5,346 nucleotides of DNA, from positions 1-5,346 of IMG/VR virus record IMGVR_UViG_3300039381_000074; one strand, given 5' to 3'. The position numbers and the translations under genes were made by a program. Shown here piece after piece: positions 1 to 5,346 of the stretch. The notes under the pieces were generated by a model. The model was not told the origin of the DNA, made no database searches, and saw only the letters and a program-made list of their open reading frames with translations. The DNA is from a virus. Position 1 is the stretch's first letter. The number at the start of each line of letters is the position of its first letter.

Positions 1-15
1 ACGGGGGACGGGGGA
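1..15. repeat. Two ACGGGGG heptamer units; duplicate of the window end (circular-assembly overlap)
   Basis: Positions 1-15 (acgggggacggggga) are identical to 5332-5346. They belong to the same tandem heptamer array as 5311-5345. Confidence 0.85.
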
Positions 16-16
16 A

Positions 17-100
17 TGACACAACTAAAAAGAAAAGTCAAGGTCAAGCCGCGCGGGGCGCGGTGCTGCGCAACCTTGACTTCCCTTTTTAGCCGTGTCA
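17..100 (-). other. Long imperfect hairpin in the intergenic region; candidate packaging signal or complementary-strand origin
   Basis: Arms 17-44 and 73-100 pair position by position (i+j=117): 24 Watson-Crick pairs plus 4 A:C oppositions (23:94, 24:93, 33:84, 34:83). On the minus strand these four are T:G wobbles. The GC-rich apex 45-72 contains a 6-bp sub-stem, 49-54/58-63. Confidence 0.7.
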
Positions 101-112
101 AAAGGTAAACAA

Positions 113-150
113 GCGAAGCGAGCGAGCGGCAACGCCGCTCGGCGCTCCGC
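113..150 (-). other. Second intergenic hairpin
   Basis: Inner stem 123-130/134-141 is 8 bp with loop aac. Outer stem 113-120/143-150 has 7 Watson-Crick pairs plus one A:C (116:147), which is T:G on the minus strand. A small internal loop sits at 121-122/142. Confidence 0.65.
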
Positions 151-179
151 AAATTTTGAGTACGGGAGGACAACCGAAA

Positions 180-410
180 ATGACACATGAAACAATTACA
201 CACAAGGATGTAAACCGCTTCGCATGGTACACCAGCCGGAAAGAAGCCTTGAACATGGCAGCGATACTAAGGAGCAAAGGAATACAAGTCTATATTGGAG
301 GTAAAAGAGCGAGAAACAGTTCCAACTATCTTGACATAAAAATTGCGGCAATCTACCATAACGCATGGGTTGGTAGTGAAATGCCTTGGGTCATCGCATG
401 GCATGACTAA
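180..410 (+). CDS. Hypothetical 76-aa protein, the only gene on the opposite strand; candidate regulator, function unknown
   Basis: ATG at 180 follows GGGAGGA (164-170) by 9 nt, so the TTG at 156 used in the ORF track is probably too far upstream. TAA stop at 408-410 is followed by a hairpin terminator. I recognise no family motif. Confidence 0.55.
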   Translation: MTHETITHKDVNRFAWYTSRKEALNMAAILRSKGIQVYIGGKRARNSSNYLDIKIAAIYHNAWVGSEMPWVIAWHD

Positions 411-419
411 AGAAGAAAT

Positions 420-470
420 AAAAAAAACAACCCCCCTGACCCTAAAGGGCACGGGGGGAAGTTTTTTTTA
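420..470. terminator. Bidirectional rho-independent terminator between the convergent 76-aa ORF and the zot-like gene
   Basis: The cccccc(431-436)/gggggg(453-458) stem is extended by tg/ca and ccc/ggg around loop taaa. An A-run (420-427) lies upstream and a T8 run (462-469) downstream, so a U-tract follows the stem on either strand. Confidence 0.75.
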
Positions 471-1091
471 TTTCGAGGAGGTCTTGCTAATAATCTGCTC
501 TGTATCATATTCTAAGGCACTTACCTGCTTCACGGACTTAGGGATGGTATACCACCGTGCCCGTCCCGCCTTGCGAACCGTGTTGACCAGCTCTTGGCCT
601 CCCTCGGGGCGATGTTCCATAGCAATGCAAGAGCGATAAGGAGTAAGACGGCAGAACCAACCAAGACGGTTGCAGAGGTAAATGCGGTCGCAGAGATCAC
701 GAATCTTTTTGTCAAAGTCCATAGTCTGAGACGATACAATAATAGTCAAGTGATATTTGCGCTGCATCTTGAAAAATTCGACTGCTTCGCGGGGCATAGA
801 TTTAAAATCACGATTAGAGTGCAGGACGCCAACCTCATCAATAAGAATGAGGGAATCAGGAAGAAAAGACTGTTTCCAATATTCCGACTCTAACTCATAA
901 CCGATACCCATATTAGAATAGATAAGCCCCTTATTAGAACGAAGCCACCTATCAGCAACACGAGACATATACAGAGACTTGCCAGAGCCCTTTGAACCAA
1001 CAACAGCTTCAAGTTTATAGGGGTTTTTGCAATAATTATCGATATATACAAAAAGCCAGCAAATACAAAAGATGAGAATACCATAAAGCAT
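468..1091 (-). CDS. Zot / pI-like P-loop assembly (morphogenesis) ATPase, 207 aa, with N-terminal transmembrane segment
   Basis: Walker A is VVGSKGSGKS and Walker B is LILIDEV. The downstream block FFKMQRKYHLTIIVSSQ resembles the Zot-family HRH..D..TQ region. The start is placed at ATG 1091 (M7 of the track ORF) because GAAAGGATT (1107..1099) lies 7 nt upstream. The ATG at 1109 is part of that SD. Confidence 0.8.
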   Translation of the reverse strand: MLYGILIFCICWLFVYIDNYCKNPYKLEAVVGSKGSGKSLYMSRVADRWLRSNKGLIYSNMGIGYELESEYWKQSFLPDSLILIDEVGVLHSNRDFKSMPREAVEFFKMQRKYHLTIIVSSQTMDFDKKIRDLCDRIYLCNRLGWFCRLTPYRSCIAMEHRPEGGQELVNTVRKAGRARWYTIPKSVKQVSALEYDTEQIISKTSSK

Positions 1092-1107
1092 AACATATAA
1101 TCCTTTC

Positions 1108-1159
1108 ATAAAACGAGAAAACGTCGCCGACCATTAAAAATGGTCGGCGGCGTTTTCTC
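1108..1159 (-). terminator. Intrinsic terminator/attenuator between the coat-like gene and zot
   Basis: A 19-bp stem 1115-1133/1141-1159 has one T:G on plus (A:C on minus), a GC-rich core and a 7-nt loop. On the minus strand the core stem is followed by UUUUCUCGUUUUAU. Confidence 0.65.
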
Positions 1160-1166
1160 TCAGTCG

Positions 1167-1358
1167 TTAGGAGCGGCCAGGAATCCAGCGGCGAAGGATA
1201 CGGAGAACGATGCCCGCGATAGTGAGAATCACGAAGACTAAAAGAATGGGCTGAGACTCATAGAAGTCAATAAGCTGACCCATCCAAGTAATCATCGAGG
1301 TGAAGAACTCACCGACCAAGGAAAGCAGAGTAGCGAGAATAGAAGTAGTAGCGCCCTG
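1167..1358 (-). CDS. Candidate major coat protein (63-codon open frame); start codon unresolved
   Basis: The frame reads QGATTSILATLLSLVGEFFTSMITWMGQLIDFYESQPILLVFVILTIAGIVLRILRRWIPGRS*. It has an acidic patch, a hydrophobic helix and a basic C-terminus, as in inovirus coat proteins. SD GAAAGGATG (1374..1366) precedes it, and a terminator follows immediately. No ATG/GTG/TTG lies at SD spacing, and two in-frame TGA codons (1367..1362) close the frame upstream. Internal ATGs are at 1295 and 1283. Confidence 0.55.
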   Translation of the reverse strand, partial: QGATTSILATLLSLVGEFFTSMITWMGQLIDFYESQPILLVFVILTIAGIVLRILRRWIPGRS

Positions 1359-1396
1359 AAGTCATCATCCTTTCATAATAATATTTATGGCACCTG

Positions 1397-1510
1397 TCAC
1401 GGACGAAACAGGAGAACCAACAAAGAGAAAACAGCAGCGAAGACAATGAAAAAGCCAATTTCGGGGACAGAAAAGATGCCGAAACAATACTGCAAAGGTA
1501 AAATTTCCAT
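1397..1510 (-). CDS. 37-aa hydrophobic mini-protein (pVII/pIX-like minor virion or assembly protein)
   Basis: Hand translation gives MEILPLQYCFGIFSVPEIGFFIVFAAVFSLLVLLFRP*. Its ATG (1510..1508) overlaps the TGA of the upstream 202-aa ORF as TGATG. It falls below the length cut-off of the ORF track. Confidence 0.55.
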   Translation of the reverse strand: MEILPLQYCFGIFSVPEIGFFIVFAAVFSLLVLLFRP

Positions 1511-2118
1511 CAGATCATGCGCCCCCAAATCGCGTTCTTAATCCATGTAACAGTAGTAATGAAGACAAGGACAACAAGCAAAGCAGAAACGCAAGCCTGC
1601 GGATTGAGAACCTGAGAAGTAGTAGTGGAATCTTCCTCATAAGGGAGTTGAATAAGTTGAGTCGCACTATTATAGGAATACCTTTCGGACGTATAGCCGG
1701 ACTTGTGCACCGTCTCAGTGCGTTCGATAAAAAACGTATCTCCGAACCAATCCATAATAGCAGTGAAACTATTAGAGACGTTAGGGAGATTAGCATACAA
1801 AGCCGGAGTATCTGCGGCGCGGTCATCATAAGCGGTTAAACTCCCTTCAAACGGCAAATCATCTTCCAGAGGTACATAGCCTTCGCGGAGGTCAGGACTT
1901 TCAATAATGTTCTGCGCAGGCTCAGAGGGAGCAGAAGATTCTTCCGGCTGAGAATCAGAAGCATTCGCATCCAAATCGGCGACAGCCTGAGCAGATGCCT
2001 TGAGATAGTCATACTGCTGCACGGTCATATCACAAGTACGACCGTCATCATACTGTACGGTATAGACAGTCACGCCGTCAGCGTCAATCCAAGTTTTAAT
2101 GATAGTAGGGACTTCCAT
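1510..2118 (-). CDS. 202-aa acidic protein with a single C-terminal transmembrane anchor; putative minor structural protein
   Basis: SD GAGGGTGA lies 6 nt before the ATG at 2118. The central region is acidic and Ser/Pro-rich. The C-terminal hydrophobic segment is ACVSALLVVLVFITTVTWI. No N-terminal signal peptide is visible. Confidence 0.7.
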   Translation of the reverse strand: MEVPTIIKTWIDADGVTVYTVQYDDGRTCDMTVQQYDYLKASAQAVADLDANASDSQPEESSAPSEPAQNIIESPDLREGYVPLEDDLPFEGSLTAYDDRAADTPALYANLPNVSNSFTAIMDWFGDTFFIERTETVHKSGYTSERYSYNSATQLIQLPYEEDSTTTSQVLNPQACVSALLVVLVFITTVTWIKNAIWGRMI

Positions 2119-2120
2119 TA

Positions 2121-2285
2121 CTAATCACCCTCATTCCAAAGACTGTGAAGAACGAAACCAACAAGAGATAGCAAAAAAAGCATAAGAACTAAGCCACCAT
2201 AAGTGCCGAAGTGAAAAAAAGGCATATTCAGTACTTTATAGACAAACGAAGTAACTACACCGAGAGTAGCGACAAAATCTACCAT
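2121..2285 (-). CDS. 54-aa protein with two hydrophobic segments (pVI-like or minor coat candidate)
   Basis: Hand translation gives MVDFVATLGVVTSFVYKVLNMPFFHFGTYGGLVLMLFLLSLVGFVLHSLWNEGD*. AAGGA lies 9 nt upstream. The ATG overlaps the last codons of the 43-aa ORF (CCATGGTAG). Confidence 0.55.
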   Translation of the reverse strand: MVDFVATLGVVTSFVYKVLNMPFFHFGTYGGLVLMLFLLSLVGFVLHSLWNEGD

Positions 2286-2410
2286 GGCAACCAATCCTTA
2301 ACAAATTTATAGATACCGAGCGAAACGAGAAAAACGACAACGGCAACAACGAGAGCACCACCAGAACCGAGCAGGCCGAAAACCTGTTTGAAAAAGTCGA
2401 TAAAACTCAT
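2279..2410 (-). CDS. 43-aa coat-like mini-protein (alternative major coat candidate)
   Basis: Hand translation gives MSFIDFFKQVFGLLGSGGALVVAVVVFLVSLGIYKFVKDWLPW*. SD GAAAGGCGG (2426..2418) lies 7 nt upstream. An ATGA overlap joins it to the stop of the pIII-like gene. Confidence 0.6.
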   Translation of the reverse strand: MSFIDFFKQVFGLLGSGGALVVAVVVFLVSLGIYKFVKDWLPW

Positions 2411-3603
2411 CCGTCAACCGCCTTTCGAATAAACAAACGAAGAACAACGGCACCGAAGCAAAGGAGAGAAACAGAGAAAAGGAAAGTACCTAAATTCTGA
2501 AAAATACCATTCAGAAGACCTATAGCGCCAGAGCCGATATCAGAATCAACGGAAGGAGTAGAATTCCATGAATTCAAGTTATCCTTTGAGTTTGTGAGCG
2601 TATCAGAGTTAATATCAAATTGATTAGTAAGCTCATCTTGCAAATCCTTAACAGACGCCTTAGAAATCCAATCACCGACCTTAACATCAGCAGGAAGCAA
2701 AGCATCAGGAACCCAAAGAGTAGCAGCAAAAGTAAGAGTTACATCAAATTCTGAATTATAAACATGCATACCATCTCCAGAAGGACGCTTGCAAAAAACG
2801 ATACCAAGATCAGAAGAAGGAATATTAACATTAGGAGGAAAAGAAGACATACTTGTATTAGAAAGATGGGAAGAAGTCAAATCAATATATTTATCATTAG
2901 AAGGAGTAGCCCAAAAGTCGTTAGACCCACCAGAAATAGCGAAAGAAGAATGAGAGGAAGAAGTATCTGTTTTAGAACCGAAAAAGAAGATATTGGAAGG
3001 AATATAGACAGGGTAAGTATCAAAAGTTTCATGCTCGTACTGATCAGCGATAGAAGAACCAACGGAAGAAGGCCAAGAAGTCAAAAAAGCAAAAACGGAA
3101 CAATCAGCAAAAACATCAGGAACGGTACTCAAATAATCACCGTTCCACACAATAGGATAAAGGCGAACCGCACCAGAATAACGGCTTGGAGAACCAACAG
3201 GAAAAGAAGGAAGATCACGCCAAAAGCCGGCACTAGTAAAAGAAGCGGGAATATATGGGAAGGCATAAATAAAAGTCTTAGTAGAGCCAGAAGAAGTATA
3301 AGAATAAGTACCCGAGTTAGTAGAATAAGAACCAGTAAAAGAACTGGAAGTATCAGTAGAATAATACTCATACATAGGATTAGAAATCAATTCATATCCT
3401 GTATATTGAAAGCCACGAGCAGTTAAAGTTTTACGCTGCCAAACATACCAAGAATTAGGATGTTCACGAAAAGAAGAAGCACCAACAGAAGTAGGCCAAT
3501 CATGACCAACAGCAAATGCAGGAACAGAAAGCGAAAACGAAATGACAAGAGCCGCGACAAGGGCGGCGAAGCGCTTCAATAAGCACCGCTGCTTCATCTT
3601 CAC
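2407..3603 (-). CDS. pIII-like adsorption / minor coat protein, 398 aa, with Sec signal peptide and C-terminal membrane anchor
   Basis: GTG at 3603 lies 7 nt after GAAAGGTGG (3619..3611), and an ATG follows 2 codons later at 3597. The signal peptide KMKQRCLLKRFAALVAALVISFSLSVPAFA has an AFA cleavage motif. The body is long and Ser/Thr/Tyr-rich. The C-terminal hydrophobic segment is followed by RLFIRK. The track ORF extension to 3864 runs through the tRNA and is not coding. Confidence 0.75.
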   Translation of the reverse strand: MKMKQRCLLKRFAALVAALVISFSLSVPAFAVGHDWPTSVGASSFREHPNSWYVWQRKTLTARGFQYTGYELISNPMYEYYSTDTSSSFTGSYSTNSGTYSYTSSGSTKTFIYAFPYIPASFTSAGFWRDLPSFPVGSPSRYSGAVRLYPIVWNGDYLSTVPDVFADCSVFAFLTSWPSSVGSSIADQYEHETFDTYPVYIPSNIFFFGSKTDTSSSHSSFAISGGSNDFWATPSNDKYIDLTSSHLSNTSMSSFPPNVNIPSSDLGIVFCKRPSGDGMHVYNSEFDVTLTFAATLWVPDALLPADVKVGDWISKASVKDLQDELTNQFDINSDTLTNSKDNLNSWNSTPSVDSDIGSGAIGLLNGIFQNLGTFLFSVSLLCFGAVVLRLFIRKAVDG

Positions 3604-3651
3604 TTCGCCACCACCTTTCGCGACATCGAATAACGGAGGGCAAGTCCGTAT

Positions 3652-3725
3652 TGGTTGCGGGGTCTGGACTCGAACCAGCAGCTTCACATTCAGAGAGTGA
3701 CGTGCTACCATTGCACCACCCCGCC
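3652..3725 (-). tRNA. tRNA with anticodon CUG (Gln by anticodon), CCA encoded, several non-canonical pairs
   Basis: The reverse complement folds by hand as GGCGGGG-TG-GTGC-AATGGTA-GCAC-G-TCACT-CTCTGAA-TGTGA-AGCT-GCTGG-TTCGAGT-CCAGA-CCCCGCA-A-CCA. U8, G10, the GG of the D-loop, U33 and the TTCGAGT T-loop are all in place. The deviations are G1:A72, U31:U39, G49:A65 and a 4-nt variable loop. Confidence 0.75.
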
Positions 3726-3729
3726 ATGT

Positions 3730-3749
3730 GAGAGCGGCAAACCGCTCTC
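3730..3749 (-). other. Perfect 8-bp hairpin immediately 5' of the tRNA on the minus strand
   Basis: gagagcgg / ccgctctc with a 4-nt loop. On the minus strand it ends 4 nt before tRNA position 1. No U-tract follows, so it is not a classical terminator. Confidence 0.5.
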
Positions 3750-3784
3750 CCATAGGAAATGAAATTGAGTTTGAACAAAGGAAG

Positions 3785-4027
3785 TTAAACTTCCTCAATT
3801 CCGAGAAGATACCCGTTGCGGTCAAAGTCGAGGTCATACGTAGCACCAACAACAATGAGCGCATACGGCATCATACGAGCATCGACATTGATTCTATCAA
3901 CCTGCACGCCGTCATTGTCATCGTTTGCACGCATCGAATATTCGGCCATAAGAGTAGTAAAATCATAGTCTTTGCCCTGCTTAGAAGTGCCAGCGCGGCG
4001 GGACTTACCAACTACGGTAACTTTCAT
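3785..4027 (-). CDS. Gene-V-like ssDNA-binding protein, 80 aa
   Basis: SD GAAAGGATG (4044..4036) lies 8 nt upstream. Its size and its position right after rep match gene V. The N-terminal MKVTVVGKSRRAGTSKQGKDYDF resembles, from memory, the Ff gVp segment MIKVEIK...TRSGVSRQGKPYSL. Confidence 0.65.
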   Translation of the reverse strand: MKVTVVGKSRRAGTSKQGKDYDFTTLMAEYSMRANDDNDGVQVDRINVDARMMPYALIVVGATYDLDFDRNGYLLGIEEV

Positions 4028-4045
4028 AAAGCGACCATCCTTTCA

Positions 4046-5182
4046 TCAGAATAAAGATATATCATCAAACCCATCTTCACTAAAGGGAGAGGGGTTATCA
4101 ACGACTTCATGGAATTCTTCAACGGCAATGCGAGAAGATTCAGAGAATTGCGCAACTTCCTGTGTAAGTGCCAGAGGGGAGAACGGAAGACGTTCATCAT
4201 AAAACTGCTCCCACTTACAACAAGCGAGGAAAAGCAGTTCAGGACGATAAAGCAAAATATCAATAATCCGATGACCGAAGACGTTAGCAACATAAGACAT
4301 TTTTTGTTCCTCGGTATGGATAGAAACAGAGAACTTTCGAGCAAGGTCATCACTAAGGGGATGCGATAAGTCCTTAGAAAAGGAGATGCTACGGGCTTCA
4401 AGGTCTGTTACAAATTCCATATCTTCCCAGCCATCGGGAAGAAGCGTTTCATTTCCGTAACGATTCCAACATTTACGAAGGTAGCCGAAGAGCTTATCAG
4501 GGTCTTCATAATAGAACCAGAAAAGCGGAGAAGGGTCATAAACAGTGCGACCGGAAGAATTCACACGAGAAGTATATTTCAACTCCATCTCGTAACGAAT
4601 AATATAGGAATCATCGGGGCAATCAAGAAACTCACCAGAAGCCGCACAAAACTTTTTTTCAGGGTCTTGCAGGGACTTATTATAGATACGGCAGAAGACC
4701 GCAGAAGACGTTCTACGACCAATATAAACGGTAGTGGAATCGCCATAGCCCTGATACATGAACTTGCGAACCTTACGGGCTTTTTCAGGGTAATTCATTT
4801 CATCGACAGAAGCAGAAATAACACCTAAATAGAACTCGCGCCAACGTTGCTTAGACATAACAACATCGAAGCAAAAGTCGAGACGGGAAAAGTGACCAAA
4901 TTCGTGTCCATCCTGCATCAGTGACGCGAGCCGCGGCAATGTGGGACGGAAAAGCTCACAACCATGACCGGACACTTGCAAAGAATGCGGAGACTGTTTC
5001 GCGCCGTTGTTCGGCTTAAAGAAAAGGCCAGCAGGTGAATTATATGGGGAATTCTCACTTGCGTTGGAAGTCTGCGCAAAATGCAAATCACACTGAGCAA
5101 GCGCATCTTCGATTTTGGGAATAGAGATCGAACCCTGCTCAAAAGCAAACGTTGCGTAGTCAAGTTTAACAACCGTTTTCAT
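4046..5182 (-). CDS. Rolling-circle replication initiator, Rep_trans (pT181 RepC / RstA-like) family, 378 aa
   Basis: Motifs seen by eye are KLDYATFAF near the N-terminus, LQVSGHGCELF, FSRLDFCFDV and VYIGRRTSSAVFCRIYNK (the Tyr-containing block). The start is placed at ATG 5182, 9 nt after GAAAGGTGG (5200..5192). The track start at 5224 lies inside the promoter region. Confidence 0.8.
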   Translation of the reverse strand: MKTVVKLDYATFAFEQGSISIPKIEDALAQCDLHFAQTSNASENSPYNSPAGLFFKPNNGAKQSPHSLQVSGHGCELFRPTLPRLASLMQDGHEFGHFSRLDFCFDVVMSKQRWREFYLGVISASVDEMNYPEKARKVRKFMYQGYGDSTTVYIGRRTSSAVFCRIYNKSLQDPEKKFCAASGEFLDCPDDSYIIRYEMELKYTSRVNSSGRTVYDPSPLFWFYYEDPDKLFGYLRKCWNRYGNETLLPDGWEDMEFVTDLEARSISFSKDLSHPLSDDLARKFSVSIHTEEQKMSYVANVFGHRIIDILLYRPELLFLACCKWEQFYDERLPFSPLALTQEVAQFSESSRIAVEEFHEVVDNPSPFSEDGFDDISLF

Positions 5183-5214
5183 GTGAGAAAACCACCTTTC
5201 ATTTCCATGGCTAA

Positions 5215-5243
5215 ATGTTACCATAGTATGAATGGATTGTCAA
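5215..5243 (-). promoter_or_regulatory. Sigma70-type promoter for the rep-led operon
   Basis: On the minus strand: TTGACA (5243..5238), a 17-nt spacer, then TGgTAACAT (extended -10; -10 hexamer at 5220..5215). It lies about 33 nt upstream of the rep start codon. Confidence 0.6.
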
Positions 5244-5259
5244 GAGGAAATTTCAATTT

Positions 5260-5286
5260 CGTGGGCGTATTACACGAACGCCCACG
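5260..5286. other. 9-bp hairpin with 9-nt loop upstream of the rep promoter; candidate double-strand origin / nick site
   Basis: cgtgggcgt (5260-5268) pairs perfectly with acgcccacg (5278-5286). The loop is attacacga on plus and tcgtgtaat on minus. Confidence 0.45.
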
Positions 5287-5304
5287 ATCCCGCCGTCCGA
5301 CCCG

Positions 5305-5346
5305 CAGGGGACGGGGGACGAGGGACGGGGGACGGGGGACGGGGGA
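5305..5346. repeat. Tandem G-rich heptamer array (ACGGGGG)n with one ACGAGGG variant
   Basis: The units are 5311-5317, 5318-5324 (variant), 5325-5331, 5332-5338 and 5339-5345, preceded by caGGGG. The array continues into 1-15 through the circular junction. Confidence 0.85.

Follow-up and report, generated by a model that had tools for sequence, protein, structure and literature searches.

How does translation begin in a gene whose strong ribosome-binding site is followed, at the proper distance, by a glutamine codon? This question is raised by a coat-like gene on the minus strand of the IMG/VR virus record IMGVR_UViG_3300039381_000074 (positions 1 to 5,346; hereafter the window, by which we mean this whole stretch of 5346 bases), which resembles a complete small inovirus genome with all major genes on the minus strand and which also encodes a transfer RNA (tRNA) with the anticodon CUG. 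A preliminary description, made from the letters of the sequence, had noticed that the Shine-Dalgarno (SD) element of this gene is spaced for a CAG codon, and had mentioned as a speculation that the phage could direct initiation at CAG with its own tRNA. Our comparison with related genomes supports that speculation, because the anticodon covaries with the codon and tRNA nucleotide (nt) 37 covaries with position -1 of the messenger RNA (mRNA). We therefore regard it as quite likely that the coat gene is initiated at CAG 1358..1356 by the phage tRNA(CUG) and not by the formylmethionine (fMet) tRNA of the host. It also seems likely, from the same type of evidence, that small inoviruses of gut Clostridia (and possibly of Selenomonadaceae, according to one bin of a metagenome-assembled genome) encode a dedicated non-Met initiator tRNA together with a private coat start codon (CAG, CAA, ACU, ACG or ACA), and that this pair has been retargeted repeatedly, with compensating changes at the coat gene.

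The coat start site in the window and in its relatives

The minus strand at the coat site reads tattATGAAAGGATGATGACTTCAGGGCGCT (coordinates of this and other features are collected in Table 1). As the preliminary description had it, the SD module is followed after 7 nt by CAG, which opens a frame of 63 codons (TGA TGA CTT CAG GGC ...) that ends with TAA at 1169..1167 and is followed by a terminator hairpin. The spacer, together with G1366 and T1367, forms two in-frame stops, TGA TGA (1367..1362). The first canonical codons in frame after CAG are TTG 1319, ATG 1295 and ATG 1283, with none before codon 14, and the ATGs at 1368 and 1365 lie out of the coat frame and give only the peptide MMTSGRYYFYSRYSAFLGR; all these details were found on the sequence as described. 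TGA is a genuine stop codon in the window genome: it ends rep, an open reading frame (ORF) of 202 amino acids (aa) and a 36-aa ORF, with typical TGATG coupling, e.g. at 1510, and no in-frame TGA was found in any other window gene.

The SD module of the coat gene agrees with GAAAGGAGG, the complement of the Firmicute-type 16S ribosomal RNA (rRNA) 3' tail, with which the 9-mer GAAAGGNNN also aligns. Its hexamer GAAAGG occurs seven times in the window, always on the minus strand; 25 of 200 shuffled sequences reach this number, so the count is not unusual. Six of the seven copies precede genes, at the spacings given in the preliminary description. In the tRNA-bearing genomes examined, SD-driven genes other than the special coat gene use ATG, GTG or TTG at 6–9 nt, and only one gene per genome has the special codon after a strong SD.

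The predicted protein is rich in T/S/A at its N-terminus, hydrophobic in its core and basic at its C-terminus, which is the layout of inovirus major coat proteins (~50–80 aa, a hydrophobic helix and a basic C-terminus, encoded upstream of pI/Zot). The gene is homologous to coat paralogs found upstream of zot in relatives, and it is the only such gene in the window. Searches of Pfam and PHROGs with the coat protein returned no family; the remaining window ORFs have PHROG families, with the exception of an 84-aa ORF on the plus strand.

The start site is conserved. We assembled a window-clade set of about 40 independent assemblies from GenBank, IMG/VR, ENA and Logan, and common to them are GAAAGGRTG, a 7-nt spacer, CAG, and an in-frame TGA one or two codons before CAG. 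The alignment of homologues that had been proposed for checking the site thus finds the SD, the in-frame TGA(s) and CAG all kept across the clade. In an alignment of four porcine relatives GAAAGGRTGATGNNTTCAG is kept and CAG is invariant, and immediately before the SD there is a 2-nt indel that breaks the reading frame from upstream and hence rules out read-through. CAG at the coat start is invariant in 31 unique window-clade sequences, and internal Gln codons switch between CAG and CAA. Nucleotide diversity in coat codons 2–24 is 0.17, 0.08 and 0.30 at codon positions 1, 2 and 3, respectively, and this coding-type signature indicates that these codons are translated and constrained. Many genomes have ATG or TTG directly before AAAGG (ATGAAAGG; window 1366-1376). 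In three relatives without in-frame TGAs (L199-L201; handles of this form denote the related loci compared) gene callers start a 69-aa protein MKGGCLQ... at that ATG, which has no SD.

In relatives that lack the tRNA, the homologous coat gene starts at a normal SD followed by ATG or TTG, at the equivalent position. The coat begins MEGASTTAMADF... in L197, GAGAGGAGGTGAgtttttATGATG in L198 and MQTDTPVAIGT in L041b, and in L144 a TTG is aligned with the first ACT of L059, which is a tRNA-bearing relative. The Rfam tRNA model detected no tRNA in 20 tRNA-less or partial loci, among which L016, L023, L029, L044, L048 and L155 are partial contigs with a special-codon coat gene. Many relatives possess two tandem coat paralogs (e.g. 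L005 4300-4690, L059 2340-2750 and L183-L188). The special codon belongs to the longer paralog, which is extended at its N-terminus, and the shorter one uses a normal SD with ATG or TTG. The window clade holds the special-start copy only.

The phage tRNA and its covariation with the coat start

The window tRNA scores 49.2 bits against the Rfam tRNA model, and its anticodon CUG (3693..3691) and its unpaired 1:72 position agree with the preliminary description. G1 (3725) lies opposite A72 (3656), A37 and A38 are at 3690 and 3689, A73 is at 3655, and there is a U31.U39 mismatch. The 35 unique tRNA sequences that we collected fit the cloverleaf with 92% of cells paired and compensatory changes in 13 pairs, which indicates that the window-type tRNA is genuine and under selection. 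In 32 of these 35 sequences position 1:72 is unpaired (G, C or A opposite A), and it is U:A in three and G:C in none; G2:C71 and C3:G70 are invariant, and A73 is found in the Gln type. The anticodon stem covaries freely, with two G:C pairs only in some Thr-type members. U31.U39 at the base of the anticodon stem is found in the window, L059, L182, L183, L185, L186 and L188, and G49xA65, the first pair of the T stem, is unpaired in 13 of the 35 sequences; these mismatches may make the tRNAs less used in elongation or enlarge the anticodon loop.

A metagenome scan revealed cellular-looking tRNA-Gln(UUG) genes that share the acceptor stem and the D arm, but have U1:A72 and G73 or A73. On the strength of these genes the backbone of the phage tRNA is to be described as tRNA-Gln-like, and the lost 1:72 pair is what sets the phage versions apart. 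The 1:72 position, to which the preliminary description had drawn attention, is thus indeed unpaired, but its diagnostic weight is diminished, since cellular relatives of the Gln-type backbone have a weak U1:A72 pair. The acceptor stem GCGGGG...CCCCGCAACCA, considered as proof of tRNAfMet identity, likewise had to be tempered in view of the cellular tRNA-Gln(UUG) with the same stem. The tRNAs with Thr anticodons carry the same tRNA-Gln-like backbone, which suggests that the anticodon was retargeted rather than a tRNA-Thr captured. By sequence criteria the phage tRNA does not belong to the tRNAfMet family, since it lacks both the three G:C pairs and A11:U24, yet the evidence says that it works like an initiator. 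Two observations concern other tRNAs. In L025 (IMGVR_UViG_2974633544_000001), a member of the window clade, the anticodon loop of the tRNA at 1578-1646 is of 8 nt (CTACTGAA) and its D loop is shortened, and ARAGORN calls it tRNA-??? (ACTG), which may reflect a sequencing error or a real variant; the coat start in this genome is still CAG. Among IMG/VR loci mostly from tailed phages (L063-L143) there are many tRNA-Met(CAU) genes that agree with the inovirus tRNAs in the D arm and the GCGGG acceptor stem, carry A73 and lack a pair at 1:72 (A, G or C opposite A); they resemble phage-encoded initiator-type tRNAs.

Gut inoviruses less closely related to the window also have a tRNA with the window-type backbone, located at the corresponding point of the genome and in most cases flanked by the genes for a single-stranded DNA-binding protein and a pIII-like protein. 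We compared, in a scripted table, the anticodon and the codon after the coat SD in 53 related tRNA-bearing genomes. The anticodon is exactly complementary to the in-frame codon 7–8 nt after the coat SD in 53/53 genomes, which fall into five pairs: CUG/CAG (the window clade, L005-7, L047, L191 and L199-201), UUG/CAA (L049), AGU/ACT (L059, L182, L184, L190, L192 and L194), CGU/ACG (L183, L185, L186, L188 and L189) and UGU/ACA (L187 and L193). The coat paralog without a properly spaced canonical start is in every case the one that holds the complement of the anticodon. Selection at the protein level cannot explain the match, because CAG is synonymous with CAA, and ACT, ACG and ACA are synonymous with one another. 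The new anticodon variants were obtained from gut inoviruses in GenBank and from one GTDB scan. An anticodon-agnostic scan of IMG/VR gave only CUG in inoviruses and many tRNA-Met(CAU) in tailed-phage contigs, and a scan of a single metagenome gave no new inovirus variant; L137 (AGU), L141 and L086 (UUG) were dropped as anticodon variants, as they are not inoviruses.

The complementarity extends beyond the anticodon. Nucleotide 37 of the tRNA is Watson-Crick complementary to mRNA position -1 in all 53 genomes, with A:U, U:A, C:G and G:C all represented, and nt 38 pairs with position -2 in most of them. When tRNA positions 34–37 are set against mRNA positions -1 to +3, nine distinct classes result, all of them complementary (class-level permutation p ~3e-6). 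In the E. coli initiator tRNA, nt 37 is reported to pair with mRNA -1, as had earlier been proposed for chloroplasts (PMC10018350). For a tRNA in the A site such pairing should be impossible, because position -1 would then be the third base of the P-site codon, and the covariation of nt 37 with -1 therefore points specifically to initiation in the P site.

Two relatives deserve separate mention. In L048 the coat start reads GAAAGGAGGAATGACCG CAG with G at -1, from which we predict C37 in its tRNA, a gene that falls off the contig. L191 (4409-4720; PQ006129, bajarodino virus 50) has another genome layout, with the tRNA (CUG, A1xA72) directly upstream of the coat gene, which encodes a different-looking protein of 68 aa (QGATSTAITSS...KGKASV) and has CAG 8 nt after the SD, or 7 nt if counted from AAAGGGGGT. 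This suggests that the pair of tRNA and start codon moves between, or recurs in, different coat types.

We propose the following sequence of events. The extended SD GAAAGGATG would pair with the 3' end of Firmicute-type 16S rRNA and thereby bring the triplet 7–8 nt downstream into the 30S P site, where the phage tRNA would bind by a helix of 4–5 base pairs, with nucleotides 34–36 on CAG and with A37 and A38 on the two U residues upstream. The unpaired 1:72 (G or C opposite A) would block use by EF-Tu and could permit formylation and binding of IF2. The first residue of the coat protein would then be (formyl-)Gln, or Thr in sister phages whose tRNAs are AGU, CGU or UGU, and each phage would possess one private start codon for one gene, that of the putative major coat protein. 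The comparison of genomes supports the positioning by the SD and the binding through the helix, and the subsequent events are inferred.

Competing explanations and comparison with known systems

Several observations weigh against initiation by the phage tRNA. Position 1:72 forms a weak U:A pair in L187, L190, L192 and L194. The three consecutive G:C pairs 29-31:39-41 are not present (the window stem is UCACU/UGUGA, with U31.U39), and U11:A24 is invariant in 35/35 sequences, as opposed to A11:U24 of canonical initiators. G2:C71 and C3:G70 are found also in the cellular tRNA-Gln(UUG), some of which have A73 as well, so these features are not special. An in-frame GTG (L005-7, L047 and L188) or ATG (L184 and L189) lies inside the SD or 1 nt after it, and therefore the frame alone does not exclude a canonical start in these genomes. 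The genomes are related, and the number of independent switches is nearer 8 than 53. Finally, the identification of the coat protein is indirect, being deduced from size, layout, synteny and homology to the paralogs, with no named family.

The most conventional explanation would be that the tRNA is an ordinary elongator, which supplements codon usage or allows escape from anticodon nucleases, that the host fMet-tRNA starts the coat gene on a non-cognate triplet by means of the strong SD, and that the match is incidental. Phage tRNAs are common and are usually explained in this manner (PMC10264068); CAG is the preferred Gln codon in the window (32 CAG and 11 CAA among 1474 codons), the backbone is tRNA-Gln-like without the initiator G:C pairs or A11:U24, and in Staphylococcus aureus extended SDs support weak start codons and fix start codons rigidly at longer spacings (10.1101/2025.06.19.660503). 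We nevertheless consider this explanation improbable, as it gives no account of the codon tracking the anticodon through synonymous changes (CAG to CAA; ACT, ACG and ACA), nor of nt 37 tracking mRNA -1, including C37, U37 and G37. Nucleotide 37 is C or U in L005/6, L183, L185-190, L192 and L194, so that the elongator combination of a purine at 37 with a paired 1:72 is not what is found. Pyrimidines at position 37 are very unusual in ordinary tRNAs, and the unpaired 1:72 and the G49xA65 mismatch seen in many of the phage tRNAs would disfavour EF-Tu binding. Two or three positions separate CAG, CAA and ACN from AUG, and hence they are not near-cognate. Moreover, the sole host flank recovered, that of L048, is from a spore-former of 62% G+C, in which supplementation of tRNA-Gln(CUG) would seem to be unneeded; this flank is also the sole host comparison for the Gln codon counts. 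A match between anticodon and codon is likewise predicted if ribosomes start at the ATG beside the SD (1365..1363) and undergo a programmed +1 shift (ATG ACT T|CAG) promoted by the phage tRNA, as in yeast Ty3. An ATG or GTG is kept beside the SD in the window clade, and the coat frame is +1 relative to ATG 1365. This ATG, however, is at aligned spacing 0 from the SD, as opposed to 6–9 nt for all other genes, and the triplets that precede CAG vary (CTT, TTT, CAT, TCG and CCG), with no conserved slippery site. In L059 the stretch from the SD to the site is free of start codons in all frames. No in-frame ATG, GTG or TTG occurs between the upstream stop and the site in L185, L190, L191, L193 or the window clade, and in L005-7, L047, L184 and L189 no shift would be needed, as the GTG or ATG close by is in the coat frame anyway. 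Pairing of nt 37 with -1 should also be barred as long as the P-site tRNA holds the preceding codon. The variant raised in the preliminary description, a +1 frameshift from the 19-codon leader, is contradicted by the leader itself, as its protein is not conserved and its ATGs are at aligned spacings of -3 and 0 from the SD; a frameshift of any such kind is in our opinion a long shot.

The coat gene could alternatively start without an SD at the internal TTG 1319, ATG 1295 or ATG 1283, to give a protein of 42–50 aa that is signal-less like that of Pf3, with the SD and CAG serving something else. In agreement with this, ATG 1295 and ATG 1283 are conserved in relatives, gene callers yield such products of 38–57 aa, and coat paralogs of 54–55 aa do occur in relatives. 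The coding-type constraint on codons 2–24 in the coat frame contradicts a start at Met 1295, which had been listed among the mundane solutions, and it speaks against the other internal starts too; TTG 1319 is replaced by CAG in L003, L008, L010, L020 and others. The internal ATGs have no SD at a usable distance, while all other non-overlapping genes have one, and the N-termini of the tRNA-less homologues begin at the position equivalent to CAG. An internal start is accordingly very unlikely. Least credible of all is that an upstream ATG AAA GGA is brought into frame, either because of an assembly or sequencing indel or because TGA is read as an amino acid (code 4 or 25), a possibility we regard as close to nil. 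If TGA were a sense codon, ATG AAA GGA TGA TGA CTT CAG would be in frame in the window; three relatives have TTG in place of that ATG, and L199-L201 do without the TGAs. A 1-nt assembly indel near 1359-1365, proposed earlier, is excluded because some 40 independent assemblies share the layout. The upstream ATG is AAG in L003, L022, L025, L027 and L029 and has no SD of its own, and read-through of TGA, which ends three genes and is not found in frame in any other, would fuse genes across frame-breaking indels. We also rejected TGA as a sense codon on the ground that the three genes end in TGA with stop-start overlaps, and a mini-ORF ATG AAA GGA TGA with termination-reinitiation, given that its ATG is AAG in several genomes and that re-initiation would use the out-of-frame ATG.

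The phage tRNA resembles bacterial tRNAfMet in its unpaired 1:72, in G2:C71, C3:G70 and A73 (the last in the Gln type), in an anticodon loop of the form CU-NNN-AA, and in the pairing of nt 37 with mRNA -1 seen in E. coli (PMC10018350). It differs in the anticodon, which is CUG in the window and UUG, AGU, CGU or UGU in relatives instead of CAU, and presumably is not charged with Met; it lacks the three G:C stem pairs and often has U31.U39, its 11:24 pair is U:A, its position 1 is G, C or A and not only C, and its source is a 5-kb virus, in which it would serve only one gene. E. coli initiator tRNA with an altered anticodon is able to start translation at the complementary codon (PMC11744186). 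In such engineered initiators (E. coli tRNAfMet with CUA, AAC and others) the start codon is likewise redefined by a change of the anticodon and initiation is non-Met, but they are laboratory constructs on a tRNAfMet scaffold with the three G:C pairs retained, whereas the phage system is natural, has a tRNA-Gln-like scaffold and at least five anticodons, and goes with a single structural gene of the virus. The CUA mutant initiator tRNA of Varshney and RajBhandary (1990) reportedly carried Gln.

Like the elongator tRNAs of other phages, the one described here is a complete tRNA gene with a cloverleaf and CCA, co-oriented with the phage genes. Unlike them, it is the only tRNA of a ~5-kb genome, has an unpaired 1:72, may have a pyrimidine at nt 37, and has an anticodon that tracks one codon at a ribosome-binding site and apparently not the overall codon usage. 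Phage suppressor tRNAs reassign a stop codon in elongation across many late genes. They have in common with the present system that a viral tRNA gives a codon a meaning it does not have in the host, and that some viral genes become unreadable to standard gene callers; here, in contrast, the anticodons are sense anticodons, a sense codon serves as the start of one gene, and TGA is still a stop. As regards the protein, Pf3-type coats and those of Gram-positive inoviruses also have ~60 residues, a polar N-terminus, one hydrophobic helix and a basic C-terminus, and are encoded just upstream of zot/pI with a terminator after the gene. The putative major virion protein of the window differs from them in matching no Pfam or PHROG family, and its relatives often carry two paralogs, only one of which has the special start.

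To our knowledge all initiator-tRNA translation, cellular and viral, relies on Met-tRNAi at AUG or a near-cognate codon. This rule would not hold for a tRNA that occurs naturally in a virus and begins a protein at CAG or ACN, and such a system of initiation, with start codon and initiator tRNA both replaced by the virus, would be the first natural one; the orthogonal initiation that has been built in laboratories would already be present in nature. It would also provide natural covariation evidence for nt 37/-1 pairing in initiation, an initiator tRNA and a start codon that form a ready orthogonal pair for use in Gram-positive hosts, and an explanation for missing or truncated coat gene annotations in a widespread group of gut inoviruses. 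The tRNA costs 1.4% of a 5-kb genome, and what the phage gains might be, for instance, regulated coat synthesis, a virion surface that displays a non-Met N-terminus, or freedom from host control of initiation.

Annotation, hosts and genome context

A search of 5.8 billion proteins with the coat sequence gave 11 clusters, none of which starts at the inferred start codon; their members are truncated, have spurious start codons, or come from a tRNA-less relative with a normal start. In the full-text literature, with subscription journals only partly covered, we found no description of inovirus tRNAs or non-AUG coat starts, and none of natural initiator-type tRNAs with anticodons other than CAU. 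Related prophages were found in genomes of Lachnospiraceae, Oscillospiraceae, Butyrivibrio and Erysipelotrichaceae. The window-clade partial prophage L048 (2500-9804 of CAVDWO010000002.1, labelled Alistipes onderdonkii) abuts host DNA of ~62% G+C that encodes RadA, CotJA/CotJB, an Mn-catalase (CotJC-like), an MFS transporter and a pyridoxal phosphate enzyme. RadA and the CotJA/B/C genes at this G+C content point to a spore-forming host of the Clostridium class, and the contig thus appears to be wrongly binned, its host being a spore-forming Firmicute and not a member of Bacteroidota.

Table 1. Features of the 5346-base window around the coat start site and in the remaining genome (SD, Shine-Dalgarno element)
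Feature	Coordinates	Strand	Remarks
SD module GAAAGGATG of coat gene	1374..1366	minus	8/9 match to GAAAGGAGG; SD, 7 nt, CAG
Spacer ATGACTT, 7 nt	1365..1359	minus	T1359 (-1) and T1360 (-2) complementary to tRNA A37 and A38
CAG, inferred coat start codon	1358..1356	minus	complementary to tRNA anticodon CUG
Coat-like gene, 63 codons + TAA, QGATTSILATLLSLVGEFFTSMITWMGQLIDFYESQPILLVFVILTIAGIVLRILRRWIPGRS	1358..1167	minus	upstream of terminator and zot
Intrinsic-terminator-like hairpin, 11-bp stem, 7 G:C pairs, T-rich tail	1149..1125	minus	after coat; kept in relatives
Phage tRNA, 74 nt, CCA encoded	3725..3652	minus	between gV-like and pIII-like genes
rep SD GAAAGGTGG, 9 nt, ATG 5185..5183	5200..5183	minus	canonical reference site
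rep	5185..4046	minus	first in gene order
gV-like SD GAAAGGATG, 8 nt, ATG 4027..4025	4044..4025	minus	canonical reference site
gV/RstB-like gene	4027..3785	minus	after rep
pIII-like gene	3603..2407	minus	after tRNA; SD, 7 nt, GTG
Four small or medium ORFs		minus	between pIII-like gene and coat-like frame
43-aa ORF		minus	SD, 7 nt, ATG
zot SD GAAAGGATT, 7 nt, ATG 1091..1089	1107..1089	minus	canonical reference site
zot/pI	1091..468	minus	last in order; zot assignment from Pfam/PHROG

The nearest GenBank records are the four porcine 'Inovirus sp.' genomes, with ~77–84% identity to the window. A scan of the window with Rfam at a permissive threshold detected the tRNA and nothing else. A G-rich heptamer (ACGGGGG/GGGGACG) is present in about 2 copies at 1-15 and about 5.7 copies at 5307-5346, and the array is unbroken across the end junction when the sequence is read round. 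The presence of this repeat at both ends agrees with a circular genome; the array may represent an element prone to form G-quadruplexes close to the origin or packaging region, or a terminal redundancy that arose in assembly. Adjoining it at 17-100 is a large, non-coding, imperfect inverted repeat with 28-nt arms (86% complementary, 28 nt spacing), a candidate origin or packaging hairpin. The sole sizeable ORF on the plus strand (156-410, 84 aa) has no Pfam or PHROG match, and at a comparable position relatives have a divergently transcribed gene annotated as 'repressor protein'.

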